DNA from: Eledone cirrhosa
Lineage: Eukaryota
DNA: 64,000 bases
Direction of reading: 5' to 3'
Assembly (NCBI GenBank): GCA_964016885.1
Contig: OZ024743.1
Coordinates: 289,850,001-289,914,000 of the forward strand
This document shows, one piece after another, positions 4,608 to 49,250 of the stretch. The translations under genes and the position numbers were made by a program. How positions within the stretch are numbered: the first letter of the stretch is position 1; the number at the start of each line of letters is the position of its first letter. A model generated the notes under the pieces. It was not told where the DNA came from. It worked only from the letters and a program-made list of their open reading frames with translations, and made no database searches.

Positions 4608-4636
4608 ACATAAAAGAAATATGGACAGTCGATCTA

Positions 4637-4687
<51 letters not shown>

Positions 4688-4693
<6 letters not shown>

Positions 4694-5272
4694 TATTGAA
4701 GTTTGCTTGAACCATTGTGGAATAATAAGGTAAATTTCTTTAAGTCGTTTGGAAGCCTCGACAATGGAAATGGGTAAATCTCCGGGTAACAAGATCCGGT
4801 GGTGGAGAGAGAGATGTAAGTGGGTGTACGTTGAGATGCGTGGCGTGTATAAGACGTGTAGGGGAATGAAGGAAAGAGCATAAAGGATAAAATAAAAATA
4901 ACAACACTAGAGAGAGTTACCTTGGGAGAGATTTAATTGTCCCTATATATTTCGGATTCACATCCATCAACTGGGGTTTTTTTCCGGGGTGGGGGACACG
5001 TTGTCTGTCGGAAAGGTGCGAAACCCCCAGTTGATGGATGTGAATTCGAAATATATAGGGACAATTAAATCTCTCCCAAGGTAACTCTCTCTCGTGTGGT
5101 TATTTTTATTTTATCCTTTATGCTCTTTGCTACATTCCTCTACACGTCTTATAAACGCCACGCATCTCAACGTACACCCACTTACATCTCTCTCTCCACC
5201 ACCGGATCTTGTTACCCGGAGATTTACCTATTTGCATTGTCGAGGCTTCCAAACGACTTAAAGAAATTTACC
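4688..5272. mobile_element. Long inverted-repeat pLTR-type remnant with HHR-like motifs (4941-4976 minus, 5025-5060 plus)
   Basis: 4729-4978 is the reverse complement of about 5022-5272; motif ccc-CAGTTGA-t-ggat gtga atcc-GAAA-tata-TA-ggg; TA runs on both sides. Confidence 0.75.
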
Positions 5273-5314
5273 ATATATGTATATGTATATATATGTTTAT
5301 ATATATATATTTAT

Positions 5315-6335: not shown

Positions 6336-6630
<295 letters not shown>

Positions 6631-6668
6631 GAAATATAAGAATCAAAGAACTGTTCAAAACATTATTG

Positions 6669-6715
6669 TGCTTACAGCTGTTTCCTCCAAACCGAGGTTT
6701 GGATTCTTCGGAGCA
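6669..6715 (-). ncRNA. Minimal hammerhead ribozyme of the 3' pLTR, CCGAAGA (U4C) core
   Basis: tgct-CCGAAGA-a-tccaaac ctcg gtttgga-g-GAAA-cagctg-TA-agca; perfect stems I and II, palindromic stem III. Confidence 0.85.
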
Positions 6716-8158: not shown

Positions 8159-10618
8159 CTATATATAGGGCTTAAAGTTTTGGAAGGAATGTCTGAGGCG
8201 GTGCTGGCAAGTTGCAAACACCTCAGATTTTTTGTTAAGTAGGTTACGGTTGGAGAAGATAATATTGTGTGTCTCTAGTATACAGAGGTTACAGAATTTA
8301 TTAGGTGGTTTGTACGAGGTCGCTCTGCCTATCACTTCCCATTTGAGTGTGTATGGTTTATTTTTAGATTTTAGATAGTGTATGTAGCTAGAAAGTGAGG
8401 TGGAGTTGGCTAGGCTGTGCTTTTTGAACGAGTGGATGTGCGAGTTATATCTAATTTTGAAGCAGTTAGAAGTGGAGCCTACATAGGTTTCTGAAGAGTT
8501 ATTAGTCGTGACTGTGCATGAGTATATGACATCCTTGGTTAGGCATTTTTTATCTAAAGGGCAGGTTCTATTAGCTCTACAGTTACAATTATTCTGTGCG
8601 TTAGTCCGCTGGTTATAATGCAATGCGGAAGTCTGTGTGGTGGATATAGGATTTTGGGTGTTCAGGTTGACAACCCTGGTGTTATTACTTATACTAGTGT
8701 TATTTCTATTGTTACTGCCGTTGCTATTGTTGCTTGCTACAGTGGTATTTAGAGGGTTTGCATCCCGTTGTGATTTTGTTTGTTGGAAGTAAGAACTAAT
8801 TTTACTATTATTGCTGCTAGCTATGTGGTATGCTAAGTTAGGCGTCGTAGAGTATGAGATTTTAATGGTGTTTTTGTTTAAGAGGTTGTGGTACTTGTGT
8901 CCTAGAGGGAAGTTTTTATCTAGTAGTGAGAAGAAAGCCCTAGGTATGTTGGTGGAGACATTTAGGTTGAAAGGAGGGTTGAAAAATGTATTATTTCTTC
9001 TTCTATTTTTGCTTTTAGTGTTTGGTGTGTTGCTTCCTCCTAAGGCCTCACAGTAGTTTCCATGGTAATGGTTACTTCCGGTGGCACCCTCCGCTTTGGT
9101 GTACTTGTGGTTGCTATTCCTATTATTAGATTTCCTCATGGACATGTTGTGCGAGATGATGTTGTAGCTATGTGTTTTCTTAGGTAGGAACTCTATTTCT
9201 ATATTATGGCCGGAGCTAGCTAATGCTTGATTGTAATATTGTGAGTTTTTGCTAAATATGTTTGCGTCATAGGACAGACTAGAGATTCTATTGGACACCC
9301 CCTTAGAGATAGAGTTTAATATTGATCTAGGGTGATTAGACTTGGTATCTACGTAAATAAGTTTCTCATTAGGCTTATGGAAAGGTGTATATATTTTTGA
9401 GTCTAGGTATAGTGTGGCGTCTAGGAAGTTAACATTTTTAGTGTTTTTGTCCATGGTGATACTAAGGTTAAAGTTTTTGAATGTCTTATGCAGTTGTTTT
9501 CTAGTTCTTTCTATATTAAATTTTTTATATTCTATGAGTAGAAGTGCATCATCGCGGTACAAACCACCGTTGAGGTAAGGGAGGTCTTTATGGATTTCAT
9601 TGAGGAGGTATAGGCCGACCAAATCAGTGACCTGCGCCGAGTCACTAGATCCCATGGTTATGTCGAAGTTGTTGTGCGTATCCTTGCGTGTCCATAGTTG
9701 GTCCTCGAAGGTGATTATGGTTTTACGGGCCGCAAGGATGACATCAACCTGGGCTCTAGTCAGGTCGCTATTGGTCATGGCCATGATAAGTGCCTTATTT
9801 AATAGGATAGGGGAAATAGAGGTGTAGTATGAATTGATATCAAATTGAATAAATTTTTTGTTCTTATTATTCTTGATATCCTTAAACCATTCAATTACTT
9901 CACCCGTATTTCCCCATTGTTTAAGGTGTATCTTGTGTTTAATTTGTGGGATGATTTTATCCAAAATCTTCTTGCTGATAATACCAATGTCGGACTTGGA
10001 AGGGCAGATAAGTCTTATCGTGGGGTTGCTGATGAAGTTCTCCTTATGGTCCTTCAGAGAGAATCTAGGGGGGTTCGGAGTGAAAGGTTGTGTATGCCTC
10101 TGTAGTCCTAGTTTAGACACTATATTATAACCCTCTACATTAATATCTTCTAAGTTTTTCAAGGTGGTTTTTTTGTAGCTTTTATGTAGTTCATTATATA
10201 TAAACTTTCTATAAGTAATATAATCTAGGCTGTATATGTTATTAGTTTTATCTGCGTGTACAATAATTTTATTACTAGTTTTGAATCCACTAATAGAAGT
10301 GTTAAGTTTGTTTAAGAAGGTGTTGCTTCTAATATGGTGCTTATTGTATTTAATGTTCTTAACTAGTTTAACTAGGTCATTTTCAAAGGAGTTAAGTAGA
10401 GTGTTATGAGGGGGGCTTTTAAAGGTTTTAAAGCCGAAGGAGTCAAAATTGTTAGTATTATTCAAGTTGTTAGATTTGTTTCTATCATAATGGAATGTCC
10501 TCCATCTCACTCTATTGATAAATGAATTTACACTGTTGATCAGCAATTTCTCATATGTATTCCTGGATGGTATTGGGATGTTCTTGGTCGACATGGGGAG
10601 TTGGTCTTTGATTAGCAT
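8159..10618 (-). CDS. Penelope-like reverse transcriptase + GIY-YIG endonuclease (Naiad-type), 819 aa, uninterrupted
   Basis: ADKTNNIY, KDHK..F..NP..RLI.P.KS, FIQFDI.SYY.SI, ITMGSSDSAQVTDLVGLY, GLYRDD, NFLD, SNHP, FNPPF, CNCR..CPL..KC, VIY..YVGST..FK.RYNSH, CNLC..E, LLNKKSE..CQH. Confidence 0.95.
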   Translation of the reverse strand: MLIKDQLPMSTKNIPIPSRNTYEKLLINSVNSFINRVRWRTFHYDRNKSNNLNNTNNFDSFGFKTFKSPPHNTLLNSFENDLVKLVKNIKYNKHHIRSNTFLNKLNTSISGFKTSNKIIVHADKTNNIYSLDYITYRKFIYNELHKSYKKTTLKNLEDINVEGYNIVSKLGLQRHTQPFTPNPPRFSLKDHKENFISNPTIRLICPSKSDIGIISKKILDKIIPQIKHKIHLKQWGNTGEVIEWFKDIKNNKNKKFIQFDINSYYTSISPILLNKALIMAMTNSDLTRAQVDVILAARKTIITFEDQLWTRKDTHNNFDITMGSSDSAQVTDLVGLYLLNEIHKDLPYLNGGLYRDDALLLIEYKKFNIERTRKQLHKTFKNFNLSITMDKNTKNVNFLDATLYLDSKIYTPFHKPNEKLIYVDTKSNHPRSILNSISKGVSNRISSLSYDANIFSKNSQYYNQALASSGHNIEIEFLPKKTHSYNIISHNMSMRKSNNRNSNHKYTKAEGATGSNHYHGNYCEALGGSNTPNTKSKNRRRNNTFFNPPFNLNVSTNIPRAFFSLLDKNFPLGHKYHNLLNKNTIKISYSTTPNLAYHIASSNNSKISSYFQQTKSQRDANPLNTTVASNNSNGSNNRNNTSISNNTRVVNLNTQNPISTTQTSALHYNQRTNAQNNCNCRANRTCPLDKKCLTKDVIYSCTVTTNNSSETYVGSTSNCFKIRYNSHIHSFKKHSLANSTSLSSYIHYLKSKNKPYTLKWEVIGRATSYKPPNKFCNLCILETHNIIFSNRNLLNKKSEVFATCQHRLRHSFQNFKPYI

Positions 10619-10867
10619 ATTGGCAATATTATATGTCAGCTCAACGATATGGAGCAGTTAATAGTATTAGTTATACTATTTATGGTTATGTAAACACAAA
10701 ACCTTAAGCAGTTGTAAGTATTTTACACACACCCTAAATAGTGGTAGGCAGTAATGTATTACTACCTTATTACCAGTAAGTTAAGTAGCTCAATGTAAAA
10801 ACATCAGATGATTTACAGAGCAGTTATATGAAATATAAGAATCAAAGAACTGTTCAAAACATTATTG

Positions 10868-10914
10868 TGCTTACAGCTGTTTCCTCCAAACCGAGGTTTG
10901 GATTCTTCGGAGCA
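10868..10914 (-). ncRNA. Minimal hammerhead ribozyme of the upstream pLTR (identical to 6669-6715)
   Basis: Same sequence at offset 4199, about 250 nt upstream of the ORF ATG. Confidence 0.85.
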
Positions 10915-12357
10915 ATTTATTAATGCATGGACAGTTATATGACCTCCTTTTCAGCCGAGAGACATACCAATACATATTCAAACATTGATACATATTCAAA
11001 CATTGTGGATCAACATTCATTACAAAATTTAGAGTGGCAGTACACACTTCGAGATTACATTTATATTAATAGGTACAATCAAAAATCAAAGATATAGGTT
11101 AAAGTACAACATGAAGATAAGTGGTTATATAGTGCAAATGTTATATGTGTGGCACGCATGTGCGTCTTGTTTATATAGTGTGGCAGAGAGATATGTGTGG
11201 TAGAGGCACTTAGGTAGGTAAATAAGAGTGTTAGGTTGGTAGATCTGGTGGCAAAGTCTTTATATGATTGATGTAGTCTGTGTGTGGAGAAATATTATAA
11301 ACATTAAAGATAGTGCAAGCATTAAAAGTGTTATAAGTGTTGGAGATGCACAACGCAGGGATGTCACGTAATTCATGTACTTCGGCATATTCATGGTCAA
11401 GGGAGTGTATATTTCGATTATATGCCTTTCACATAATCCACGACAATCCAGTTAGAGATCGTAGTCTGGTGTTCCTTAGTTCGATACAGGAGGTTGTTAC
11501 GTTTCGAGAGACGCCATTGAATACCGGAAGTGTGTGTGTGGCTAAGGGGAGTTAATGCATGCGGGGAGGTAACTCTGGGGTTTCTATATCTAGCCATTAA
11601 AATGTGTCCCAATATGGACCCTAAATTCTATGGTGAGGTGCACCTTCCAAGGGTGACTTTTAAAGCATAAAGTGTACTAACTATAGAGTAGTTTAACTAA
11701 ATTATGCTGAAGGAGATCATATTATTATTAAGGTGGATTAACCCATCTTAAGGTGCTACAAATGGAAATTATAGATGATGAGCGAGGATTCTAAATTAAT
11801 GATCTCTGTGGTTGTAGTCTGCTCATATGACCAGGCGCGGTGATTGCAGGATTGCTTCAGGACCCAATGATCTCTGGTAAGATCTGGGTCATCGCTTGCT
11901 ACATTGGATGTCGAAAGATAATCGTCCCCAGGCAGGCCAAAGGTCAATCCGCAGTCCTCGCGACCCCTCTCTGACCGTCAGATCATCCATATACGTACAA
12001 CCCGCACGGCAGTTGCATTGCATTCACTCACTGCGCTCAGCAGCCCGGTCCTACTGGTCAACAGCGCTACTCGATTAAATCATTTTACATCTGTCTAAGG
12101 AAGGTGTTTCCTCTGCCCAACACCATCCAACCGATCGATTCATGCTCAAATTACCCTTAGAGCGGTGTAGTGCCGTCCAGGTGGGTGGATGTTGTCACAC
12201 CTGCCGTAGAGGTATAAATGGGTATTTTCCCTGCGAAGGGTTCCAGAGGGATGTCGTTGTTTGTGTTATAATGGATCAGCTAGTGTTGGGTATATAGTAT
12301 AGGGTGTGTCTCTGGTGTTTGATGCTAGATGTGGTGTTAGGTTCCAGTCCGACATTG

Positions 12358-12952
12358 CTATATATAGGGCTTAAAGTTTTGGAAGGAATGTCTGAGGCGG
12401 TGCTGGCAAGTTGCAAACACCTCAGATTTTTTGTTAAGTAGGTTACGGTTGGAGAAGATAATATTGTGTGTCTCTAGTATACAGAGGTTACAGAATTTAT
12501 TAGGTGGTTTGTACGAGGTCGCTCTGCCTATCACTTCCCATTTGAGTGTGTATGGTTTATTTTTAGATTTTAGATAGTGTATGTAGCTAGAAAGTGAGGT
12601 GGAGTTGGCTAGGCTGTGCTTTTTGAACGAGTGGATGTGCGAGTTATATCTAATTTTGAAGCAGTTAGAAGTGGAGCCTACATAGGTTTCTGAAGAGTTA
12701 TTAGTCGTGACTGTGCATGAGTATATGACATCCTTGGTTAGGCATTTTTTATCTAAAGGGCAGGTTCTATTAGCTCTACAGTTACAATTATTCTGTGCGT
12801 TAGTCCGCTGGTTATAATGCAATGCGGAAGTCTGTGTGGTGGATATAGGATTTTGGGTGTTCAGGTTGACAACCCTGGTGTTATTACTTATACTAGTGTT
12901 ATTTCTATTGTTACTGCCGTTGCTATTGTTGCTTGCTACAGTGGTATTTAGA
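12358..12952 (-). pseudogene. Duplicated GIY-YIG C-terminal part of the ORF within the upstream pLTR
   Basis: [10 protein letters not shown]...FQNFKPYI is identical to the C-terminus of the 819-aa ORF; truncated at (TA)n. Confidence 0.9.
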
Positions 12953-14773: not shown

Positions 14774-15114
<341 letters not shown>

Positions 15115-15293
15115 CAAGTATATATCCCTACACGCAAAAAGCGTTCAGGGACACTTGTATTGTCCAACCATATGCCAATGTGGTTCAATGGCAGGTTAAT
15201 AAATTAACGAGCCAGAATATATATAATCAAGGTTTAGCAAATAAGAAAAAGTTTCAAAATAAATTTCAGAAAATTCACTGTACTCACTATGTT

Positions 15294-15380
15294 ACCTTTA
15301 CCGAATCGGTTTCGAGTCTCAAAAATAAATGGGCAGTCCTTGCGGCCTTCCATTGAAAAGATAAACTCTCGTCAGAAGGT
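15294..15380 (-). ncRNA. Type-I hammerhead ribozyme with long stem II
   Basis: acctt-CTGACGA-gagttt...gagactc-GAAA-ccga t tcgg-TA-aaggt. Confidence 0.85.
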
Positions 15381-15448
15381 TCTTTTCACTCGGAGAATAT
15401 AAAATTCCCGAGTTCAAATCCCGAGATGAGAATGAATGATGTGGAAGC

Positions 15449-15692
<244 letters not shown>

Positions 15693-18641: not shown

Positions 18642-18688
<47 letters not shown>

Positions 18689-19312
18689 TGAAGTTTCCGT
18701 TGAAAACAGAAAAAGTCATAGGAGTGAAGAGTGCTCTATGTAAGTACCAGAGCAAAATTTAATGTATAAAAAACAATACAATATAATTACCTCATTACCA
18801 GAGGTTTCCCGAATAAAGCGAATACGAAAGAAACGTCTTCATTCGTTCGTCGGACGAGGCAATATAAAACATACCTAAATATTTTAAAGTCTCCTCAAGA
18901 ACTGCAAAAAAAAAAATTATATAAATATAGATAAAGGTAATACAATAGACATGTAAAATATATAAAAATGTGTTTAAGAAATATAGTTAGGTGTGTGTAT
19001 ATGTATGTATATACACTCACAGATGTACATATGTGTGTATGTACAAATGTGTGTGTATAGTGAAAATATGTGCGTAAATATATGTGTGAGGGGAAGTATA
19101 TCTGTGTATATGTAACTACAGACACAGACATGATATGAGTGTCCGGTTGACAGGTATACAGAAAAACAGGGTATTAGATACATTATAAGAATATGAAGGC
19201 ACGCGTAAAACACACACACACGCGCGTACACTTATATGCGGAAGAAAAAGAGGTAAGGAAGTGTAATAGTAAAAAGGAAGTATCCATCTCGATATATTTA
19301 TAAAAAATATTT

Positions 19313-19836
19313 ATTAAATCCTATATCATCAACAAAAAATCACCTAGAGAACATCAACATTGCTCCTGTAGAATCAAAAGTGAATGCCCATTACAAGGTG
19401 AATGCAACACCAAAGCCATTGTATATGCGTCTAAAGTGACAACCATCAGCAACAACCAACCAGCCACCAGTGAACGATATGTGGGTATGACGCAAGACAA
19501 ATTCAAAACGCGTTATTACTCACATGTCGCATCTTTCGACATCCAGAAAAAAGATTTACAATAGCTCTGGCTAGCAGAATATGGGATTTGAAAGACCAAG
19601 GTATCCAATATAAATTGGATTTATCAATTTTGAACCAATCTAAAGAATATGCAAGAGGAACAAGAAAATGCACGCTCTCCATAAATGAAAAATATTGGAT
19701 TTTGCAAAACATTAAATCACCAAAGTCCTGCCTAAACACAAAGACAGAAATGTTCACCAGTTGCCCATACATGAAATCACACCTGCTTCCCAGCTCATAT
19801 AAACTTAACACACTTTCAGATACTTATCCTCCATAA
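19313..19836 (+). pseudogene. GIY-YIG endonuclease domain of a Naiad-type element, one frameshift near 19535
   Basis: CSCRIKSECPLQGECNTKAIVYASKV...RYVGMTQDKFKTRYYSH / RIWDLKDQG...KCTLSINEK...CLNTKTEMFTSCPY; collinear with the C-terminus of the 819-aa ORF. Confidence 0.9.
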
Positions 19837-21155
19837 GCTCTTATTATTCTCTTTAAGACTACCTTTTCTGATTTACTTTCATTTTTAACCTTATTATTAA
19901 TTTCATTTTTATTTTTATTTTTATTTTTATTTTTATTTTTATTTTTATTTTTACTTCACATCCACCACTAAACCTCACCCTTTATTCTCCGATTCACTTA
20001 CCTAATATCTTCACTTTCCACTTTTTACTTCCCTATTTTCTTCACTACCTGATTACAAGAGTCACTTGCGTTTTCCACTCCAGATATTTTCTGTTATTTT
20101 GCAGCCAATTTTATATTTTTATATTTGTACTCACTTATTCACAAGGCTGTTTTTACACCCTGTATCTATGTGTCTGAGCGTCTTTATGTGTGTATAGTTT
20201 CTGTATAAGTACACGAACGCCTCCGTATGTGCGCGCGCGTGCGTGTATATATATATGTGTATGTATGTGTGTTTTTATATCTGTGTTTTTACATCTAGGT
20301 TTTGTTACATTTTAATTTTTATGTGTGTGCATGTAAGCGGGTCAACGTGCGTGACTGTATGTATGTGTGTGTGTGTGCGTGTGTGTACGTACTGAATGTA
20401 TGGATGTGTAAGTGTGCGTATGTATATATGTATGTATATATTTATGTGTGTGTATGTGTGTGTGTGTATACAGTCGCGTACGTACGCGTGATTAGATATA
20501 CATGGGGCAAGGTGTATGTATATATATATGTGCATCCTGTGTGTGTATGTATACTTGCATACGCTTTTGTCTGCACGTTTTGCGTGTATATATATATTTT
20601 TTATAGATATACGTTTCTTATAGATATATGTGTGTATGTACGCGTGTACCTTGTTTTGTTTTCTTTTCTTTACTTTGCAATTTTTTCTTTCTATATTATT
20701 GTTCCATTTTTATAATTATATCGAGAATGATACTTCCTTTTTATAATTACACTCCCTTACCTCTTTTTCTTCCGCATATAAGTGTACGCGCGTGTGTGTG
20801 TGTTTATACGCGTGCCCTCATATTCTTATAATGTATCTAATACCCTGTTTTTCTGTAAACCTGTCAACCGGACACTCATATCATGACTGTGTCTGTAGTT
20901 ACATATACACAGATATACTTCCCCTCACACATATATTTACGCACACATGTTTACTATACACACACATTTTATACATACATATATATGTACATCTGTGAGT
21001 ATATATACATACATATACACACACCTAACTATATTTCTTAAAATTTTTTTTATATATTTTACATGTCTATTGTATTACCTTTATCCATATTTATATCATT
21101 TTTTTTTTGCATTTCTTGAGGAGACTTTCCAAATATTTAGGTATGTTTTATATTG

Positions 21156-21225
21156 CCTCGTCCGACGAACGAATGGAGACGTTTCTTTCGTATTCGCCTT
21201 ATTCGGGAAACCTCTGGTAATGAGG
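21156..21225 (+). ncRNA. Hammerhead ribozyme with CCGACGA (U4C) core (inverted copy at 18790-18859, minus)
   Basis: cctcgt-CCGACGA-acgaat...attcgg-GAAA-cc tct gg-TA-atgagg. Confidence 0.8.
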
Positions 21226-21305
21226 TTATTATATTGTATTGTTTTTTTATACATTATATATATATATACATATGTTTATATATATATATATATACACACA
21301 CACAT

Positions 21306-22572: not shown

Positions 22573-23525
<953 letters not shown>

Positions 23526-23585
23526 TGTTGATTTAAAACTGCACTATCCACAAGGGTTTTTTAGCCTCCATATCATGTTCTCCTG

Positions 23586-23652
23586 TTTTATCTGATGAAA
23601 ACACAAATATTATTGCATGATGATGTTTGTTTTTGAAATGCGCATAATAAAA
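23586..23652 (+). ncRNA. Canonical minimal hammerhead ribozyme (same family as 34149-34215, minus)
   Basis: ttttat-CTGATGA-aaacacaaatatt..gatgtttgttttt-GAAA-tgcgca-TA-ataaaa; TA run about 45 nt downstream. Confidence 0.88.
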
Positions 23653-23689
23653 TACATGGAACTCCTTTAACCATCTTTTGATCTTATAT

Positions 23690-23752
<63 letters not shown>

Positions 23753-23760
<8 letters not shown>

Positions 23761-24330
23761 GCATTTTGAAGACCGTATGCTATTGTTTTAGAGTAGTGAC
23801 AAATTCACTCACTTTAATCTCAGCAAACAGGGGAGATAAGCCGACAAGGGCCTTGTTTCTCTTTTGTTGAAGCTTATCAAGGCTAACTACCCGTCCTGTC
23901 TACTGACATTACTGATTTTATATTCTTATAGAATTCTAGTAAATAATCAGGAGCTGATTATACAGAGCGATTGTTGGTCAGGCAGAAAGTAAAAATTAGA
24001 ATTGGAGCTCTGAAATAGCAATATATATATGGATGTATATATAATGTATTTTGCAATACACTTTTTGCTTAATTAAAAGCATTTTGAAGACCGTATGCTA
24101 TTGTTTTAGAGTAGTGACAAATTCACTCACTTTAATCTTTGTTATAACAAAAGCGAAACAAGGCCCTTGTCAGCTTATCTCCCCTGTTTGCTCAGATTAA
24201 AGTGAGTGAATTTGTCACTACTCTAAAACAATAGCATACGGTCTTTAAAATGCTTTTAATTAAGCATAAAGTGTATTGCAAAATACATTATATATACATC
24301 CATATATATATTGCTATTTCAGAGCTCCAA

Positions 24331-24337
<7 letters not shown>
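23753..24337. mobile_element. Retrozyme-like element: 318-bp monomer (about 1.2 units, minus) plus inverted arm; U3:A8 HHR at 23839-23884 minus
   Basis: aattaaaagcattttgaagacc at 23753 and 24071; inverted from about 24146; agcc-TTGATAA-gctt..-GAAA-caagg c ccttg-TC-ggct. Confidence 0.78.
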
Positions 24338-24377
<40 letters not shown>

Positions 24378-24378
<1 letters not shown>

Positions 24379-24748
24379 AATAAAATATAGAGTTATTAAC
24401 TCATATAGATACCCTGCAATTAACAAGCTCAAAGTATAAATACTGAGCATTATAATATTAATATGTGTAGTAGGTAAACACAGTAAATCCCGTGTCTTAA
24501 ATTACGAGGGTAGATTACACCACAAATGTTATATATCTTTCAACTTGAATCATATGGGAAGTTACAACATTTCTTACAAGATTTCTCATACATACCATAT
24601 CAATAATGGTTATTGATATGGTATGTATGAGACATCTTGTAAGAAATCTGGTAACATCCCATATAATTCAGGTTGAATGATATATAACATTTGTGGTGTA
24701 ATCTACCCTCGTAATTTAAGACACGGGATTTACTGTGTTTACTGTGTT
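24378..24748. repeat. About 270-bp imperfect palindrome (centre near 24608) with left extension, between TA runs
   Basis: gtaaacacagtaaatcccg...catatcaataa-tgg-ttattgatatg...cgggatttactgtgtttac; 24380-24431 also occurs at 23412-23463. Confidence 0.85.
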
Positions 24749-24897: not shown

Positions 24898-24977
<80 letters not shown>

Positions 24978-24980
<3 letters not shown>

Positions 24981-26623
24981 TATGCATGTATACGTACATA
25001 CATATATGTATACAGACGTACAGTAGCATGCACATATATATATATATATACATATATACATACATATGCATACAGGTACACATACATATATGCACGTATC
25101 AGTTTAGTGGCGCTAACGTCGCTTTGTTCGTTTGTAAACAAACTGAACAGCCTGAATTTATGCCATACGGTGTTAAGGCAACCACGTCACCTTTTTGTTC
25201 AACACTGACACAGGAACGATGTACTAGTTTCAAGCTTGTTAGCTATCATCAGCACCGTTTACCCATCTGCCAGATAGTTGAACGTTCGAAAGTATATACT
25301 TTCCTTATGAAAATTAACGGCTGAGCAGCCTAATTTGCATATTGAGTGAGTTAAATCGGTCAGGCATACCGAAAACGATAAATTGAAACAAAATGAAAAC
25401 GAAATTTCATTTCTCACTCTTAGTATGGCACTTACTTAAATGTAAGTATGCATGTATACGTACATACATATATGTATACAGACGTACAGTAGCATGCACA
25501 TATATATATATATATATACATATATACATACATATGCATACAGGTACACATACATATATGCACGTATCAGTTTAGCGGCGCTAACGTCGCTTTGTTCGTT
25601 TGTAAACAAACTGAACAGCCTGAATTTATGCCATACGGTGTTAAGGCAACCACGTCACCTTTTTGTTCAACACTGACACAGGAACGATGTACTAGTTTCA
25701 AGCTTGTTAGCTATCATCAGCACCGTTTACCCATCTGCCAGATAGTTGAACGTTCGAAAGTATATACTTTCCTTATGAAAATTAACGGCTGAGCAGCCTA
25801 ATTTGCATATTGAGTGAGTTAAATCGGTCAGGCATACCGAAAACGATAAATTGAAACAAAATGAAAACGAAATTTCATTTCTCTCTCTTAGTATGGCACT
25901 TACTTAAATGTAAGTATGCATGTATACGTACATACATATATGTATACAGACGTACAGTAGCATGCACATATATATATATATATACATATATACATACATA
26001 TGCATACAGGTACACATACATATATGCACGTATCAGTTTATGTGCATGCTACTGTACGTCTGTATACATATATGTATGTACGTATACATGCATACTTACA
26101 TTTAAGTAAGTGCCATACTAAGAGTGAGAAATGAAATTTCGTTTTCATTTTGTTTCAATTTATCGTTTTCGGTATGCCTGACCGATTTAACTCACTCAAT
26201 ATGCAAATTAGGCTGCTCAGCCGTTAATTTTCATAAGGAAAGTATATACTTTCGAACGTTCAACTATCTGGCAGATGGGTAAACGGTGCTGATGATAGCT
26301 AACAAGCTTGAAACTAGTACATCGTTCCTGTGTCAGTGTTGAACAAAAAGGTGACGTGGTTGCCTTAACACCGTATGGCATAAATTCAGGCTGTTCAGTT
26401 TGTTTACAAACGAACAAAGCGACGTTAGCGCCGCTAAACTGATACGTGCATATATGTATGTGTACCTGTATGCATATGTATGTATATATGTATATATATA
26501 TATATATGTGCATGCTACTGTACGTCTGTATACATATATGTATGTACGTATACATGCATACTTACATTTAAGTAAGTGCCATACTAAGAGTGAGAAATGA
26601 AATTTCGTTTTCATTTTGTTTCA

Positions 26624-26626
<3 letters not shown>
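24978..26626. mobile_element. Retrozyme-like tandem array: 468-bp monomer, about 2.3 units minus joined head-to-head to about 1.25 units plus
   Basis: Near-identical units start near 24978, 25444 and 25912; inversion junction near 26038; one HHR per monomer; no credible ORF; TA flanks. Confidence 0.9.
25215..25259 (-). ncRNA. Canonical minimal hammerhead ribozyme (copies at 25683-25727 minus and 26282-26326 plus)
   Basis: aacggtg-CTGATGA-t-agct aaca agct-t-GAAA-ctag-TA-catcgtt. Confidence 0.9.
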
Positions 26627-26716
<90 letters not shown>

Positions 26717-26739
26717 TAAATATATATATATATATATAT

Positions 26740-27833
26740 AGATAATTTAATATATCTACTAACATAAGCGCACAGATTTACGCTAATGCCAGCAAATACA
26801 CAGGTTATGTCATAGTACCTAGGTGGTTCAATGCAGGAGAATGCAGAACAATAATATAAAAGACGTAAAATAAGAAAACTTTTTAAAAAAATTAACTTAC
26901 TTACTTAAATTTTCACTCCAACTAATTAGTTTCTGCAATGGGATAAAGACAGTTACGTAATGAACTGTTGAGAATTTCATTGCGTCATCAGGGAGGTCAT
27001 TCTCAGCCAAGTCTCCAGGCAATGCGCGGACACTGGGGACTCATATAAAAATAATAATAATTCGGTAAATGGAACAGCTATCGAGGACTGGATTCCAGCT
27101 ACTGAAAATTCTCACTGCCACTGGTCATATGGCCGATTCTAAAGAATCAATCACGTGACACAGAGGCTAGTCAGTAGGAATGGGATGGTAAGATGACAGA
27201 CGCCTACTAACAACCCCAAAAAATTTAGAAGTGGTTTTGGCAGGTTTGCTCGACAAATCAGTGATTTGGAGATAAATATAGATAATTTAATATATCTACT
27301 AACATAAGCGCACAGATGTACGCTAATGCCAGCAAATACACAGGTTATGTCATAGTACCTAGGTGGTTCAATGCAGGAGAATGCAGAACAATAATATAAA
27401 AGACGTAAAATAAGAAACATTTTTTAAAATATTTTAAAAAAATTAACTTACTTACTTAAATTTTCACTCCAACTAATTAGTTTCTGCAATGGGATAAAGA
27501 CAGTTACGTAATGAACTGTTGAGAATTTCATTGCGTCATCAGGGAGGTCATTCTCAGCCAAGTCTCAAGGCAATGCGCGGACACTGGGGACTCATATAAA
27601 AATAATAATAATTCGAATTATTATTATTTTTACATGTGTCCCCAGTGTCCGCGCATTGCCTGGAGACTTGGCTGAGAATGACCTCCCTGGTGACGCAATG
27701 AAATTCTCAACAGTTCATTACGTAACTGTCTTTATCCCATTGCAGAAACTAATTAGTTGGAGTGAAAATTTAAGTAAGTAAGTTAATATTTAAAAAACTT
27801 TTTTAAAAAATTTTCTTATTTTACGTCTTTTAT
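26740..27833. mobile_element. Retrozyme-like tandem array: about 540-551-bp monomer, about 1.6 units minus with a spacerless fold-back at 27614/27615
   Basis: gataatttaatatatc at 26741 and 27281; palindrome centre aattcgaatt; HHRs at 26916-26995, 27467-27546 (minus) and 27683-27762 (plus). Confidence 0.9.
26916..26995 (-). ncRNA. Canonical type-I hammerhead ribozyme of the 540-bp family (five copies in the window)
   Basis: ctcc-CTGATGA-c-gcaatg..acagtt..aactgt..cattgc-a-GAAA-ctaattag-TT-ggag. Confidence 0.9.
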
Positions 27834-27851
27834 ATATATATATATATATAA

Positions 27852-27895
<44 letters not shown>

Positions 27896-28623
27896 TTTTT
27901 TTGGGAATGTATTTGACTGTTATTTCTTGTAAACAAACATTCATTTCATCCTTACGTCACTAACCCTGTTTTTCCTCAAGTGCGTTTTTCATAATCACGC
28001 GTGATGGTGAACTAGCCAGTTTTTGAATTCCCTTTTTGGCTTATAATTCTGTGAGAGCCCTGGTTATCGAGTTGAGCTCTGCTGATGGTGAATTCCAACT
28101 GTGACCATCTCCACTGAAAGTTTTCATGAAATAGTCTTCAAGACTATACAGAGCATTTGATGTTTTTCCAAATTGAAGGATAAGTATTTTAGACTTTATT
28201 TTATCATGAGTTAAGGCTCTATCGATTTTTCCCTGGATTTCACTAAATTCTGTGGATGAATTTATATCCTGATTCTCTTTTGAGATGAGTTTGAATTATT
28301 TTTCCTACATCTTACGTTAACTATTTTCCCATCTTGACGACATAGTCGCATATATGTTATGGAATACTGTTAGCTTATCGCTAAAACAATTTCTATACCT
28401 TTCATTTATATATATATATATATATATTCATACATATAAGGGTGTTCATCCAATGTCTTTTGTAAATTTATTTACTCCCTTATAGTTGAGTAAAAATAAA
28501 ATTTGGCCTAACCGGACTAAGTCTTGTAGCAGCCCCGTTACTTGCGATTGTCCACATATCACTGCCACTATAGGGATTGAAGGACCAAGACCAAGCGGTA
28601 TGTTGAATAACCAATTTCTTGTG

Positions 28624-28683
28624 TTTTATCTGATGAAAGCGTACTCAAAAACATCTGTACCCTTGAAATATATGTTATAAAAT
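28624..28683 (+). ncRNA. Minimal hammerhead ribozyme, related to 14671-14735
   Basis: ttttat-CTGATGA-aagcgtac..gtaccctt-GAAA-tatatg-TT-ataaaa; TA run about 55 nt downstream. Confidence 0.7.
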
Positions 28684-28726
28684 ATATACTTTGCTTATGT
28701 GAAATTATTTCTCATTTATTACTATT

Positions 28727-28769
<43 letters not shown>

Positions 28770-31542
28770 CCTATATAACCTGGTGTTTTAGTTTCCTTGC
28801 AAGAATGTACTTCACCAACTCAGACCGGTGCCACAATATTTTAAATAAAAATTGGCTTTGCGTACCGGTGCCTTAACAATATAAGGAGACAAATCCCTAA
28901 CCATAACAAGCACACCATTTGTACGTCTCACAAACTTCGTGAATGCATCTGTAGAAACACACACGTATACCCCCCCCCCCCCCCCCACACACACACAATA
29001 TATATATATATAATATAGTGCTTGTTTTGTTTTAGAAACATTAACTGTGAGAATAAAGAAGAATAAATACACTCTATACAATTTGATATAAACACACAAA
29101 TACCGGAATGATTATTTAAAGATATTTCGGGGATTATTGTCTCTTCATCATAATGTAATTACTTTTATGATTCCTCCTAGAAAATTATATTTTTAGCCTC
29201 AATCTTCAAGTCAAACAGGATGTCGCCAAAGTCTGATTTTATGTCTATCGACTCAAGGCTTGTGAGTAAAATTCAGTACACTGGAATTGTGCCCGCATTT
29301 CAGCATTTCTAGAGTATATCTCGGCCTAATTCAATTTAGTCATGTACATCTCATTTTATTCAAACATAATGTATCTGAGACTAGCCAATGTGTCATTGCT
29401 TCATCGCAGTATATTACATGGAGTGGATATGTTGCTGCGTATAGCAAATCAAAGATATACGCAGATGTGCATAGTTCATTGAATGCATTCAGAAATATAC
29501 ATAGGATTAATTGATAATTAAATGTACAATATTGAATCTGAATATTAGAACATTTTTGGGGTGTTAATTAGTTATTTTAAGATACTGCTTTCAAAATCAT
29601 GGGGTCGTAGATTCCGCACCCGAATCGTGAGGTGCCTTTTGTACGCGTGAAACGCATTTCATTTCATGTTTTCCTTGTCCACTCACGTGTAAATATTTTC
29701 CAGTAGCAACACCACTCGACGACTAACCATACAACAACTTATGCGTCGGTCAAAAGTGAAAACATTTTTTTAAAATACAATTTCGTACTTTGACGCTTTA
29801 CATACAAGGGAAATGTAAGTGCATCCTAAAACCCCTTTGTAGTCCCTTGTCTGAATGTTTTATCAGCAGTTATTGGATATCATTGAGGAAAATTACGCAA
29901 TTAGGAAGCTGTGACAATGACCTATTAACTACCTAATTAATGTTGAATGCAATATGAATTAATTTTAAGAAATTGGATTTAGGCTACAATCAATCTCCGT
30001 GCACAGCTCTTTTGAATTCTTTCTGTACTGTGCACATAACAGAAATTTATTATTTTTTTCCGAAATACACCAACTTGAGAAGATCATGATCAATTTATAT
30101 TTTATTCAAATTATTTTACTTGGCAGCAGACGTCGATATGTCATATCATTAAACAGAAAGCACAGTCATCATAAAATAGTTATAAGGAATGTAAAAATAT
30201 AAGCAATCATTTAAACCAAAAGGAATTGCATTAGAAACGAAAATGTTGAAACTACTAAAGAATAATAAAAATAAAAATTAATTTTATCGATATTAATACT
30301 AACTTTAAATCCCTAAAATACGAAGAATTACGAGAAAATAAATAGTTATTTCAGAAAAATAGCAACAAAAGTAATGTAAAATTAAAGTACAAAGACTGTA
30401 GAAAATTTAAAATAACACGATGTATATGATGAGAGAAAGTCTTCATTATTTTAAGAGAATTCAATTATGGTGGATCATTTGAGCTGAAATCACAAAAATT
30501 CAATGATTGTATCAGTTTATCTTGAGAATATCAAGGATATTAAACATGTCAGGTTGTAAATCCGCGTCTATTTATTTGAATAAAACGCTACAGAATCTGA
30601 TGGCTGAAGTAAACGCAAAATTGATTAATGTGAAGAAGCGTGTATGAATGTTATTTATAACAGGATGGACGTAAATTAAAGTAGATTTCGTCAACCCTTC
30701 TCATAAGAAAACAGATTTTCTGTGCATGACGTATATACGATACATATAATTTTCTATCAATTTTCGTCGCGAATGTACGAATAGGATACAAAACTGATAA
30801 TTTCTTTAGGAAATATGGCGAAAATAGCTATATGTATTGTATCAAGAATGCAAATCACCTGTCTCTTTTAATTCAACTTGAACCACATGTTCGCATGGTA
30901 TATACAAGACATGGCTTGTATAATAAATGAATGAGAAAGAACGTGTAAAATAAATTTTAGTGTGTGTGTGTGTGTCTATGACAAAAGAATTAGAGCATCG
31001 AAATCGTGTTTTGCAAAGCATTTTTACTGTAAATATAACTCCTGCGTTCAAATCTCACTCTCATTACTTTGGGTTCTCAGCCAATTATGAGGTTATTTGC
31101 ATTGACTGCAATCATTTTTTTCTTAAATGGATGGAAATTTTCTCAACACATATATAGTATACTATTGTAATATATATATAGGTGCGTGTGTATGTGTATG
31201 TGTAACTTCCCGAGCTGTGTTGGGGGGAAAGTGACCAGAGTAAAACAAGTTAATCAATACATTGGTAGAGTACAACCATCTTCATTATATATAGGAAAAT
31301 TACTTCTACATGACTAAAACTGTTTCTTTTATATGAAATCATTCTAGTCCTGTAGCTGTCATTTTACCCCGCCCCCTCTTTCTCTCTCACTCTCTCTCTC
31401 TATATATATATATAACTATATATACATATATATATATATACATATATATATTTATATATACATATATATATGGAATAGAATGAAACGAAATTTCGTTTCT
31501 CACTCTTAGTACGGCACTTACTTAAATGTATACATACATACT

Positions 31543-31617
<75 letters not shown>

Positions 31618-31620
<3 letters not shown>

Positions 31621-32802
31621 TAATTTAATATATCTACTAACATAAGCGCACAGATGTACGCTAATGCCAGCAAATACACAGGTTATGTCATATTAAGTAA
31701 GTAAGTTAATTTTTTTTTTATTTAAAAAAAAAAAATTCTTATTTTACGTCTTTTATATTATTGTTCTGCATTCTCCTGCATTGAACCACCTAGGTACTAT
31801 GACATAACCTGTGTATTTGCTGGCATTAGCGTACATCTGTGCGCTTATGTTAGTAGATATATTAAATTATCTATATTTATCTCCAAATCACTGATTTGTC
31901 GAGCAAACCTGCCAAAACCACTTCTAAATTTTTTGGGGGTGTTAGTAGGCGTCTGTCATCTTACCATCCCATTCCTACTGACTAGCCTCTGTGTCACGTG
32001 ATTGATTCTTTAGAATCGGCCATATGCCCAGTAGCAGTGAGAATTTTCAGTACCTGGAATCCAGTCCTCGATAGCTGTTCCATTTACCGAATTATTATTA
32101 TTTTTATATGAGTCCCCAGTGTCCGCGCATTGCCTGGAGACTTGGCTGAGAATGATCTCCCTGATGACGCAATGAAATTCTCAACAGTTCATTACGTAAC
32201 TGTCTTTATCCCATTGCAGAAACTAATTAGTTGGAGTGAAAAATTAAGTAAGTAAGTTAATTTAAAAAAAAAGATTTTTTTTTAAATTTTCTTATTTTAC
32301 GTCTTTTATATTATTGTTCTGCATCCTCCTGCATTGAACCACCTAGGTACTATGACATAACCTGTGTATTTGCTGGCATTAGCGTACATCTGTGCGCTTA
32401 TGTTAGTAGATATATTAAATTATCTATATTTATCTCCAAATCACTGATTTGTCGAGCAAACCTGCCAAAACCACTTCTAAATTTTTTGGGGGTGTTAGTA
32501 GGCGTCTGTCATCTTACCATCCCATTCCTACTGACTAGCCTCTGTGTCACGTGATTGATTCTTTAGAATCGACCATATGACCAGTAGCAGTGAGAATTTT
32601 CAGTACCTGGAATCCAGTCCTCGATAGCTGTTCCATTTACCGAATTATTATTATTTTTATATGAGTCCCCAGTGTCCGCGCATTGCCTGGAGACTTGACT
32701 GAGAATGATGTCCCTGATGACGCAATGAAATTCTCAACAGTTCATTACGTAACTGTCTTTATCCCATTGCAGAAACTAATTAGTTGGAGTAAAAATTAAG
32801 TA
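31618..32802. mobile_element. Second insertion of the 540-553-bp retrozyme-like family (short minus arm 31618-31692, about 2 units plus)
   Basis: HHRs at 32157-32236 and 32710-32789 (period 553); sequence is the reverse complement of 26740-27614. Confidence 0.9.
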
Positions 32803-32809
32803 ATTTTAA

Positions 32810-33304
32810 GCATTTATTGATGCTTATCAAAGCCAACTACTCCTCCCGTTTGCTGAAAAAACCCAGGATGTTTTGGTTCTTATAGAATTCTAGTAAATAA
32901 TCAGGAACTGATTATACAGAGCGGTTGCCGGGCAAACAGAAATTCAAAATTAGAATTGGTGCTCTGAAATAGCTATATATATATATGAATGTATATATAG
33001 TGGATTTTGCAATATACTGTATACTTAATAAAAAGCATTTTGAAGAACTGATTATACAGAGCGGTTGCCGGTCAAGCAGAAATTAAAAATTAGAACCAAG
33101 GCCTTGTCAGCTTTATCTCCCCCTGTTAGCTGAAATTAAAGTAAGGGAGTCTGTCACTACTCTAAATCAATAGCATAAGGTCTTCAAAATGCTTTTTATT
33201 AAGCATACAATGTATTGCAAAATACACTATATATACATTCATATATATATAGCTATTTCAGAGCAACAATTCTAATTTTTAATTTCTGCTTGACCGGCAA
33301 CCGC

Positions 33305-33310
<6 letters not shown>
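32810..33310. mobile_element. Diverged, rearranged copy of the 318-bp family with inversion near 33095
   Basis: Shares ttcttatagaattctagtaaataatcagga..ctgattatacagagcg with 23923-23970; TTGATAA core again (plus strand ttatcaa, 32824-32830). Confidence 0.8.
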
Positions 33311-34022: not shown

Positions 34023-34148
34023 AATAAAGATTCAGCGAGAATCGCATTTTCGGCGTGCAGGAAAAGAGAAGCGAAAGGCAAAAATCAGAAATGATATATA
34101 TATATATATAATATAAGATCAAAAGATGGTTAAAAGAGTTCCAAGTAT

Positions 34149-34215
34149 TTTTATTATGCGCATTTCAAAAACAACTATCATCATGGGATGGTATCTGCGT
34201 TCTCATCAGATAAAA
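34149..34215 (-). ncRNA. Canonical minimal hammerhead ribozyme (family of 23586-23652)
   Basis: ttttat-CTGATGA-gaacgcagatacc..gatagttgttttt-GAAA-tgcgca-TA-ataaaa. Confidence 0.85.
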
Positions 34216-36552
34216 TAGGGATACATGATATGAAGATTTAAAAACACTTGTGAATAGTGAAGTTTTAAATCAACATATGAAAAATAATTTAAGATTGATG
34301 TATGAGATTGGGAAACAGTGAGGGGGGGGGGGGTGGACAATGTAAGGAAGAGGAGGAGATGAGAGTAAAGAATGGTGGGGGAGGAGTATAAGTTACACAA
34401 TAATCAAAGCAATGTTCAAATCATTTTATTGCTGACAATCGTTTCTTCCAAACTATCGTTTGTGATCATCGGAACATTAACAATGTCGCATCCATTCCAC
34501 TCTGTAAATACGAAACTGTTGTTGACAACATTAATATCCATGTACCTATATGATTGTTCAGTTGAATAGGAGGTTAATTCAGTTGAATAGGAGGTTTATA
34601 GTTGTATATAGTGTATACATAACTATAAATATATAATAGAAGAAATTGATGAAAGAGAAGCAAGCCGTTAAAATATATTTATAAGAAGTGCTTACACATT
34701 TTACCCCCAAGAAGCGCTCTTCCGAGGTACACAAGGAAATAAAGGATTTAATAAAGAACCCTGTGTGGGTATTTTAACATCGAAATTCATATCTCGGTGT
34801 TACAAAGTTAAATGTTTATGTTTGTGAACACAGGGAAGTAATGCCGGTGTTATTTAGATTTATCTGCTAAATATAAATATATATATATACAGAGAGAGAG
34901 AGAGAGAGATTGACTACGAAGAATTGAAACTAAGTGTCGGTCTCGGTGGGTTTTGAGTAGAGGCAGCCGGACTATGTCTCGCAAAGATCGAATCCAACGC
35001 AATAATCAATCTGCCATTTTGCGGTCTATACCACTACAATCATTTTGTTATCAATCTAGTTATATGTATAACATTTATTCTGTAGCACATGTCTTAATCC
35101 CACTATTTTGTTTTACCAGTTTCATTATTGCATTAATCGCTTTCTCATATCAAATTTTCAAATCATAATGTTGCATTACCCCTGATTTTGCTGGGCATGT
35201 CGATACACAGTCTTGAGGCCTTTTGTGGAGGGGGAGTGGAAGTTTACCTTAAATCGTATTCCCTTCCGATTGCTTGCTTGCAACATAATGAAACATGCTG
35301 ATTTTACCACAGAAAGACGCATTATTTCTACAACCCAATAAAGCAACACACGTATTTGCAATGAGAACCCAAATAGCTGGAATAATTAAGACGATACAAT
35401 TCTGCTAATTCAACGCTCTGGACATGTATTTCATTTTAGCAACGAGTAAGGGCATACATTCACCTCGCTGGGATTTGAAAAGAGAGTGCAGAGATTCGCA
35501 ACAAATATTAAAAAGCATTTGGTCCTATGCTTTAACAATTTTGCCATTCACCGCCATATTCTTTTAGTTGTTCATACCATTATTATATGTGGTATACAAT
35601 TTTTAGACCCCAGCATGCAAATATATTTCTTTACATTTATACAAAACACTGTTGTTCATTGAGAAATAAAATTCTGTTATTGACACATGCCGTAGCTTAG
35701 TACATATATTGAAGTTTCGTTTGAAAAAATTACAAAGACGCATACAAAATAATCAGGTACGTCGATACAAAAAAGTTTTAGGCGATAGATGGTTAAATGT
35801 ATAGAAATAACTTCATCTACATTGGAATTTTGAATTCGTTAAAATGAAAAGTAATAATATAAAAGAAAACTGTTCTCAATAAACTCGGTTTTATCTATTA
35901 TACATAGAAATGTCTAATTCTGAATGTACAGGATTGCATGACACGGCACATTAATGGTGAATTATTGCTTTTCATTGAGTGGGAAGAGTAATGCCCATTG
36001 TCACGAGAGCCAAGACTGTTGGGTGAGGTGGGTGGAAGCTGTCTACAAATTGGTGTGTTGTTGCGGATATGTGGGATGAACAAGAAATCAGTATATTCTC
36101 CCAAACCCCAGGTAGTGGGTTTAAACTCGATAAGGATTAAAATCTACGATATAAGTAGACCACAGCAGAGTTTTAACTAAGAACACAAACATTTGGAACA
36201 GTTAAAGATGCGATAACACATCCGTAAATCCACGTTTTTAATATTGGCTATTGAAAAAGACGAAAGAGCACAGTTGACTTTGGCATGATGTGAACTCAGA
36301 CCTAGACACAGGAAAAACTCATTGAATCTAGTATACAGCACTGACGATCTGTCTCAGTAAGGGCATCTGAAGATGTATGAAGGAATGAAACCTGGAAAAA
36401 TGAAGTAATATAACTATATAATTCAATACACTTATTCTAATATACTACCGATTATGTTATTCAAATACACTCGCAGGAGGTAATATTTAAATAGAAAACG
36501 CAACTAATTCGATGTATAAATTCAGTCTTCTGAGACGGAAATTCATTGTAAT

Positions 36553-47844: not shown

Positions 47845-48350
47845 CTTTTGTTTAAATGTGCCCCCATATATGAATGATATCTGCAATATGCTCACAGCTC
47901 CTATTAATGTTTTAATAATCGACACGACCATTAAATCTGTTGATATTCTGTTGATAGTTTATCAACATACAGTTTCACATCAGTGCTTCCTAAATCTATT
48001 TACCGTGCTATCATGGTTTACGCTTCTCGATGATTTATATTCTCTCCCTCCCCTCTCTCTCTCTTTATTTCTCCCTCTGTATATTCTCATCTCTCCCTCA
48101 GTATCCCTCTTATTGAAACTATGGAATGTTGAACTTGAAATGTGAACTTGAACGCTTAGATAAATCGGCACAAGTCTTAGGCAGAAATAGAGAGACAAAA
48201 AGGAGATATGTAGATACTGTTAACGTATTTAGTATATATATATAAAATACGAAACTCGGTTCACAGAGGAAAGTGCTTTGTTTAGCTAAAGCAGCGATTC
48301 GGTTTCAAGGCGCAGTTAAGGACGCCTTATACATTTTAATTTACGAATTA

Positions 48351-49250
48351 CGAGTTGTGTCAGAAAAATTCCAGGACTGATGTCACAAAAGCTTTATTTC
48401 AAACCTAGACTTCACTCTAAGAGTTTTCTCCTTCAAATATTCCCCCTGGAGTCGAGTCTAATGCACTTTTCCATCCTTTTCAGTCACGTTTGCATACACT
48501 CCTGGAAGGATTCCTCCGGGTTCCTCCGCAGTTCCGTCGTCACAGCATTTTTGATGTCGTCCACGTCTTCAAAACAGGTCCCCTCCGGGTCGTACTCGAA
48601 CATCCATGACGCATCACCGGTGATGACTGTCCCTAGCAAGTCTGGTTCGGTTTCAAGACGCTCGAGTATGTCCTGGCACACTTGCATACATCGACCCTTC
48701 TGGTCATCGTTCAGCATCGTTTTGGCACCATCTTTGCGCAGACTTTCCGCATGTCCAATTTTCAGTGAGAATCTTCCAGACGCTGTCCCGATTCATGCCC
48801 AGCTCATTTACCATCAGTGGAACAGTCAGCCGATGATCGCTACGCACCGTCTGCCTAACGCGCTCAACGTTGACCTCAGTCCTGGTTTTTGAGGGCCTTC
48901 CACTCCTGGGGTCATCTTCCCCGTCCTCGCGGCCTTCTTTAAACCTCTTGCTTTCCTCAAAAACATGTGAGCGTGACAAAATCTCATCTCCATACATTTG
49001 CTGCAGCAATCCCAGTGCTTCTGACGGAGTTTTCAAGTTTGTTCGTTGCTCTGTGCTCATTGCTTGACGACCTGAAATAGAGGACATGTATATAAAATTA
49101 TGAAGAAAAACGTTTGATCGCTGCAGAGAGCTAAGATTACAGTTACATACTCCAGGGGGATTACTTTGAAGAAGAAAACTCTTAGTGTGAAGTTGGGTTT
49201 GAAATAAGTATTTTGTGACATCAGTCCTGGAACTTTTCTGACACACCTCG
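48351..49250 (-). mobile_element. Internally deleted mariner transposon, 900 bp, TA target-site duplication, about 100-bp inverted termini
   Basis: ta-cgagttgtgtcagaaaaattccaggactg ... cagtcctggaacttttctgacacacctcg-ta; transposase remnants KRFKEGRED.EDDPRSGRP and VITGDASWMFEYDPE fused directly to FEDVDDIKNAV. Confidence 0.93.

Follow-up and report, generated by a model that had tools for sequence, protein, structure and literature searches.

A 540- to 553-bp hammerhead repeat inserted head-to-head in (TA)n arrays of Eledone cirrhosa is probably a retrozyme copied by a Penelope-like enzyme

In a 64,000-nt stretch of the Eledone cirrhosa genome (hereafter the window; contig OZ024743.1 of assembly GCA_964016885.1, positions 289,850,001 to 289,914,000, forward strand), a non-coding repeat unit of 540-553 bp carrying a hammerhead ribozyme (HHR) motif is inserted twice within 6 kb. 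We propose that this unit is a retrozyme without long terminal repeats (LTRs), that is, a non-autonomous element copied into the genome by the enzyme of a TA-targeting Penelope-like element (PLE), likely of the Hydra clade; from the sequence, we give this reading a probability of about 0.7. The unit, its HHR motifs, the geometry of its arms, its ends, a diverged relative called element D and the coding PLEs nearby are read from the sequence, and the RNA and integration steps are what we infer from them. The analysis covers this one window together with reads and contigs mapped to one unit, and statements on the literature refer to the accessible parts of the sources cited.

Self-comparison of the window, together with the sequence itself, gives unit periods of 540, 551, 553 and 553 bp, seamless across both insertions. 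The two multimeric insertions reported by a first-pass annotation hold within a few bases, insertion 1 at 26741-27835 and insertion 2 at 31619-32802. The same annotation described a tandem family; tandem units are indeed present in both, with two consecutive HHR-bearing units arranged head-to-tail per insertion, but each insertion consists of two arms joined head-to-head with their 3' ends outward, and the plain tandem form is not seen. Insertion 1 is made of a left arm of about 1.6 units with two HHRs (26741-27615, minus strand) and a right arm of about 0.4 unit (27614-27835, plus strand). Insertion 2 is made of a left arm of about 0.14 unit, or about 75 nt (31619-31692, minus strand), and a right arm of about 2.0 units (31693-32802, plus strand). 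The unit has a GC content of 37%, its longest stop-free stretch in six frames is 97 amino acids (aa), and none of 95 PLE homologs matches a unit dimer by tblastn. This absence of coding content supports the earlier proposal of a non-autonomous, retrozyme-like element.

At the centre of insertion 1, both arms begin at one and the same unit base and form the spacerless palindrome already noted at first reading, AATTCGAATT, with a 2-nt CG overlap. At the centre of insertion 2 the arms overlap by at most 1 nt, and the start and end of the right arm lie about 12 and about 17 nt, respectively, beyond an HHR cleavage site. The single start base of both arms of insertion 1 may mark the 5' end of a transcript or a strong stop, or may result from a fold-back. 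Fold-back copying at this junction is unsupported, the right arm having no derived substitution in common with the adjacent unit. Local duplication of one insertion was also rejected, as the pieces of another repeat (family B, see below) that lie by the two left ends are oppositely oriented. The unit length ranges from 540 to 553 bp because an A/T tract (32259-32288, plus strand, about 30 nt 3' of the cleavage site) varies between copies, its five copies being five different palindromes with arms of 5-14 bp. That the tract is palindromic despite differing in each copy suggests either repeated correction by template switching or selection on the hairpin.

HHRs were called by scanning the whole window for the motif, on both strands and at permissive settings uncalibrated by shuffles. 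Among the 13 HHR-like sites obtained, five belong to the unit family, with cores at 26991 and 27542 (minus strand) and at 27687, 32161 and 32714 (plus strand). The scan thus agrees with the five HHRs with a GUU site claimed earlier, apart from one changed core: the layout is CUGAUGA-c-[stem II]-a-GAAA-CUAAUUAG-UU, and the 27687 copy deviates from it by a CUGGUGA core. The motifs extend over 26916-26995 (minus strand, cleavage predicted after 26920), 27467-27546 (minus strand, after 27471), 27683-27762 (plus strand, the deviant and likely inactive copy), 32157-32236 (plus strand, after 32232) and 32711-32788 (plus strand). The core is intact in four of the five copies, and stem I has 4 bp except at 32714, where it has 3 bp. 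Stem II, with its C.A opening pair, is 51 nt in length and is predicted to form a single unbranched stem with two internal loops, so that the earlier description of a long branched stem II stands for the length but not for the branching. Stem III, CTAATTAG, is palindromic as described, with 12 nt including core bases and a predicted duplex energy of -10.8 kcal/mol. Judged by this layout, the topology is of type I, stem I being the open stem; the positions A9 and G12 named below follow the usual HHR numbering. None of the 92 Rfam hits at E<=1 is a hammerhead, and the HHR call rests on the motif scan; the top Rfam hit was the palindrome, scored as a microRNA under the cut-off. Beside stem I, about three quarters of the sequencing reads differ at 32154-32156, with letters that would add a fifth pair; the minority form is present in both window insertions.

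Of the four outer ends of the arms, three meet a (TA)n array, each with a 5-nt overlap between the array and an internal TATAT of the unit; the arrays lie left (26627-26740) and right (27836-27892) of insertion 1 and left of insertion 2 (31546-31618). The 3' ends of both left arms fall on one common base, 179-192 nt beyond the cleavage site, and the right arm of insertion 1 ends (27835) at a different TATAT, 77 nt beyond it. The shared left end and the preference for an internal TA motif, both put forward at first reading, are therefore seen, the latter at three of four ends and at the aligned place in element D. A 5-nt overlap has a chance of 0.045 per end (25 of the 553 unit positions), which for the distinct sites only amounts to about 0.002, in a test picked after the ends had been seen. 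Target-site duplications are unreadable because the flanks are themselves (TA)n. About 9 nt 5' of the shared end, a 23-bp, G.U-rich hairpin is predicted (32364-32415, plus strand), with further copies at 26750-26801, 27290-27341 and 31628-31679 on the minus strand and at 31811-31862 on the plus strand. It is specific to the HHR strand (z -6.2 in sense vs -1.4 in antisense) and constitutes a candidate start signal for reverse transcription. The second TATAT end site comes, in the predicted fold, after the A/T tract hairpin.

Element D (15105-15455, minus strand) is related to the unit but diverged from it, and carries an HHR of its own, whose 53-nt stem II has a canonical G-C at its base. It aligns collinearly with the unit along the 195 nt following the cleavage site; with three scoring schemes, the alignment was matched in 0, 0 and 2 of 1000 shuffles, and no alignment to the unit was obtained for four other local families. 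The 3' end of element D meets (TA)n at the position aligned with the shared end of the unit, and its terminal hairpin is weaker (z -2.8). The motif best kept between the two resembles, on the opposite strand, the consensus of the RNA polymerase III B box, with about 0.1 chance matches expected.

A candidate helper type lies in the same window. An apparently recent insertion (6626-12952, minus strand), flanked by (TA)n on both sides, is an autonomous PLE with a 4199-bp period, pseudo-LTRs (pLTRs) of 2128 bp that are 99.86% identical, and one HHR per period (10910 and 6711). Its open 820-aa frame (8159-10621, minus strand) encodes reverse transcriptase (RT) and GIY-YIG regions, with the motifs RVRWR, ADKT, YRDD and CxCX5C followed by a C-terminal GIY-YIG-type motif, CxxC and CxH; its best homolog is 39% identical, and its 39 aligned homologs have a consensus with RWK and DKT. 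The element is of the Hydra clade, as judged by RW[K/R], DKT, CxCX5C, CxxC, CxH and a by-eye likeness to the proteins of PMC8557442, because these motifs are clade features there. It is longer than the described Hydra elements, which are generally under 3 kb; a classification as Naiad was dropped, its endonuclease being C-terminal with Hydra motifs. A Pfam search of the 820-aa sequence alone gave no match, RVT_1 and GIY-YIG each matching 3 of 40 alignment members; a solved-structure search with the protein gave no match, and a cluster look-up of 8 of 95 homologs returned no names. The HHR of this element has a CCGAAGA core and an A.G at the base of stem II; its 3' end, 47 nt beyond the cleavage site, also overlaps (TA)n by 5 nt (P 0.041).

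Element C (18685-21253) is a 5'-truncated coding PLE with an endonuclease remnant (19355-19836) related to that of the intact PLE (E 2.5e-9). It shows, with its inverted arm, the same head-to-head anatomy as the unit insertions, both 3' ends being in (TA)n, and has two HHRs (CCGACGA core, 37-nt stem II), a 1.3-kb 3' untranslated region (UTR) and a 34-nt tail. In the tables of PMC8557442, (TA)n is the preferred target of 26 of the 27 Hydra families, and among the listed Hydra HHRs we count 10 of 25 with GUU and 15 of 25 with a mismatch at the stem II base; because of these counts, features of the unit that are odd for a retrozyme are usual in the Hydra clade. Naiads likewise prefer (TA)n, some having HHR half-cores 35-50 nt apart.

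On this basis the following course may be proposed. Tandem copies would be transcribed on the HHR strand, and two HHRs would pair via the palindromic stem III, then cleave. The monomer might be ligated into a circle, which is the weakest step, a linear multimer left uncleaved being about as likely. A PLE protein would nick both strands of a (TA)n array, and the 3' ends of the nicked strands would be extended from the internal UAUAU beside the hairpin. Copying would pass the cleavage site and make up to two rounds. The two cDNAs would be joined at their far ends with a 0-2 nt overlap, giving head-to-head arms with their 3' ends outward. As three arms cross a cleavage site, a linear monomer released by cleavage does not fit as the template, which should be either a circle or a multimer left uncleaved. 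Other retrozymes yield circular RNAs, and the protein of the Poseidon PLE nicks and extends both target strands in vitro, with an internal start on the RNA (PMC11167929). The most specific version, in which a dimer of the Hydra-clade enzyme would copy a circular RNA by rolling circle, with a 5-nt pairing of UAUAU, next to a conserved hairpin, priming both (TA)n strands, appears unlikely.

Several observations weigh against this reading, starting with those on the ribozyme and the circle. The free fold (-15.4) is favoured over the HHR fold (-11.7) by 3.7 kcal/mol, stem I has only 4 bp and the base of stem II is C.A; elsewhere, 8 of 9 tested Xenopus dimers failed to cleave (10.64898/2026.07.22.740005), and HHR cleavage is dispensable for the Poseidon protein (PMC11167929). 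The predicted circular fold speaks in favour, being 64% paired (z -5.3 vs 40 shuffles), but the antisense circle is hardly less stable (-136.1 vs -140.5). Among the 33 variants that were mapped singly on the fold, unphased and drawn from 40 listed among the 147 of the family, a pair is preserved by 5 and broken by 11, the other 17 being at unpaired positions; there is one possible compensatory pair among the family variants. Units within one arm differ from each other (at 2/309 sites, with the junction base dropped, and at 1/152 and 5/376 sites), and the A/T tract is unlike in all five copies.

These points agree with a template that would be a linear multimeric transcript, made from a genomic array, left uncleaved and used by the same helper without any circle, the HHR being a weak or dispensable relic: its features are weak, the variants give the whole-circle fold no backing, units of one arm are not identical, and uncleaved RNA is the chief PLE substrate in vitro (PMC11167929). 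We consider a linear template quite possible. However, some alleles are common within an insertion yet not between insertions, which fits one template per insertion plus drift, the two insertions differing at 8/524 and 8/376 sites (A/T tract excluded); none of the 40 listed variants (147 in all) falls in the core boxes or stem III; one arm begins 12 nt from the cleavage site, a point made post hoc; and circles are known from other retrozymes. If the template were linear, the element would be a plain non-autonomous PLE, a retrozyme by sequence definition alone.

Further contrary points concern the ends. The fourth one (32802) lies outside (TA)n and adjoins another repeat (family E); at two ends of family B the overlap with (TA)n is no more than 2 and 3 nt (P 0.47 and 0.27); the distance from the cleavage site is 179-192 nt for the shared end, vs 34-47 nt for the coding elements; and the start used by the Poseidon protein has no target homology (PMC11167929). 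Reverse transcription could thus start at a fixed, structure-defined site without any target pairing, TATAT being there by history or the overlap having arisen by later slippage or deletion. Besides the small overlap of family B, one site accounts for two of the three ends, Poseidon begins at fixed sites and a Hydra family is noted with four copies ending at one site (PMC8557442). Such a start remains somewhat unlikely to us: two distinct unit sites and the end of the intact PLE all show 5 nt, and of the four TA runs of at least 5 nt in the unit, two are unused in this small sample, fitting structure plus pairing over either alone.

Lastly, the unit and the intact PLE have no detectable sequence in common (scores of 23 and 31 vs shuffle maxima of 31 and 34), and none was found between the unit and element C; sequence shared with an autonomous Penelope pLTR, suggested as a check at first reading, is therefore not found against the intact PLE of the window. 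The unit being the pLTR of an autonomous PLE alone was rejected on its period of 540-553 bp and its arms of 1.1 kb without any open reading frame (ORF). A related and doubtful possibility is that a coding PLE with at least two tandem 553-bp HHR repeats in its 3' region gave rise to the arms by 5' truncation, the unit never being mobile on its own. PLEs carrying tandem minimal HHRs are reported, all four arms measure at most 1.1 kb and would be compatible with a longer parent, and element C, with its 1.3-kb 3' UTR, has a like anatomy. The period of a simple pLTR is nevertheless that of the whole element (4199 bp here), not 553. Moreover, of 1989 contigs on the unit in one set (run X1), 171 are only partly on it and none of these continues into unlike sequence; the six X1 loose ends among those listed are short (there are 271 more).

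The family at large is diverse and probably has very many copies, because of the read and contig numbers and the wide spread of identities. Parts of the unit occur in 19 sequence entries, from 15 studies and under 16 organism labels, and 4 of the 22 listed runs were used for read mapping to one unit, the mapping depth not being a copy number. A reduced-representation DNA run has 7580 reads on the unit: 685 at >=99% identity, 2343 at 95-99%, 3031 at 90-95% and 1521 lower. Of these reads, 1009 from 76 starts connect the last base of the one-unit reference to the first. Beside the 1989 records of X1, two other organism labels have 12 and 33. Piled read ends in run X20 (six listed and six loose-end places) were rejected as restriction-library artefacts, not natural ends, because every one falls on an AATT site of the unit or no more than 2 bases away from one, AATT being presumably the restriction site. 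A metagenome scan with a 25-mer gave 0 matches, and a gapped-pattern search gave 71 loci judged as chance, none of which aligns to the unit or forms HHR stems.

That the unit is an ordinary satellite spread by DNA-level recombination, or that the palindromes are a fold-back artefact of assembly, is hardly credible. Both (TA)n arrays and palindromic junctions are prone to such events, but the arms of the palindrome differ at 4/191 sites plus the tract, the RNA hairpin and the HHR motifs are strand-specific, and the polar ends are common to the unit and element D.

When compared with known systems, the unit resembles metazoan non-LTR retrozymes (PMC7229834; 10.64898/2026.07.22.740005) by its non-coding tandem repeats, one type I HHR per unit, GC below 50%, palindromic stem III, co-occurring PLEs and length. 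It had been noted as larger than described retrozymes; it does exceed the 170-400 nt of PMC7229834, but its size is not novel, because retrozyme consensus lengths of 51-972 bp, with a mean of 650 in ray-finned fish, are reported (10.64898/2026.07.22.740005). Unlike the canonical retrozyme HHR with its 6-bp/4-bp stems, that of the unit is of PLE type, with a 4-bp stem I, a 51-nt stem II and a C.A base, and its copies, known here from sequence alone, are (TA)n-anchored head-to-head arms, unlike those of metazoan non-LTR retrozymes. A plant LTR retrozyme, with type III HHRs in its LTRs, was rejected on the type I topology and the lack of an LTR pair; primer-binding site and polypurine tract were not searched.

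Retrozymes have been argued to be non-autonomous PLEs (10.64898/2026.07.22.740005), and inverted arms, tails and a microsatellite bias are described PLE traits (PMC8557442); the inverted arms, fixed ends and (TA)n targeting of the unit are thus already published for PLEs. Hydra-clade PLEs share with it (TA)n targets, an inverted 5'-truncated arm (Penelope-13_HM), copies ending at one site (Hydra-1_Obim), as the left arms do, and, by eye, HHRs with GUU, a mismatch at the stem II base and an ACT..AGT stem III (PMC8557442). The exact C.A opening of stem II is listed for a non-Hydra PLE of Chara and is therefore not exclusive to Hydra (PMC8557442). The unit differs from Hydra-clade PLEs by its lack of ORF, its 553-bp period, its much longer stem II and its ends 179-192 or 77 nt past the cleavage site.

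As for the unit, both strands are extended, at AT-rich targets, in the Poseidon PLE of Anolis, whose two fixed internal start sites lie close to a stem-loop on the 3' side of the HHR (PMC11167929); the Poseidon start is non-homologous to the target, whereas the unit ends overlap it by 5 nt. With the minimal hammerheads of PLEs (PMC4209133), the unit shares a short helix I, a long helix II, a palindromic helix III and an extra base after A9, and differs by a further extra base 5' of G12 and by a helix III that is closed, not absent. In Schistosoma, pairs of HHR motifs lie 100-700 bp apart on opposite strands, as in the unit insertions (PMC4209133). In our literature search, with thin coverage of subscription journals and with preprint supplements outside it, no publication mapping retrozyme insertion ends was found, nor any retrozyme tied to the Hydra clade.

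Other HHR-bearing, TA-associated repeats in the window number at least five. Family B (24977-26629 and 31471-31545) is a 468-bp tandem with an inverted arm and three HHRs of the typical Hydra form, whose 4-bp stem II has U.U at its base, and the circular fold of this family has a z of -7.0; a family B piece and each left end of the unit insertions adjoin a common (TA)n array. Family F (23523-23706 and 34094-34278) consists of two diverged HHR-bearing fragments, missed by the motif scan, which end in (TA)n about 45 nt beyond the cleavage site and whose last bases are, by eye, like the tail of the intact PLE. Family E (23753-24389 and 32813-33309), in which no HHR was seen, repeats a unit of about 310 bp, arranged as tandem and inverted arms that end in (TA)n. 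The window also contains broken fragments of an RT that we take, from their translations, to be RTE-like (4294-6300, with an inverted copy at 4725-5276) and, at 48320-49290, transposase fragments that we likewise take to be mariner-like.

As a sequence family, the unit is one further retrozyme, and its value lies in readable ends and a testable start signal. Proposals exist for how animal retrozymes return to the genome, but the mechanism is still to be worked out, according to 10.64898/2026.07.22.740005. The unit gives base-level ends, a candidate start signal common to element D and, nearby, an intact ORF from a likely helper clade, and the question of retrozyme reintegration therefore becomes testable. 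If the pairing-guided version were true, it would represent a homology-guided mode of PLE priming that differs from what the single PLE examined in vitro shows; for reconstituting retrozyme integration, the window would then offer an intact 820-aa enzyme together with a 553-nt passenger.

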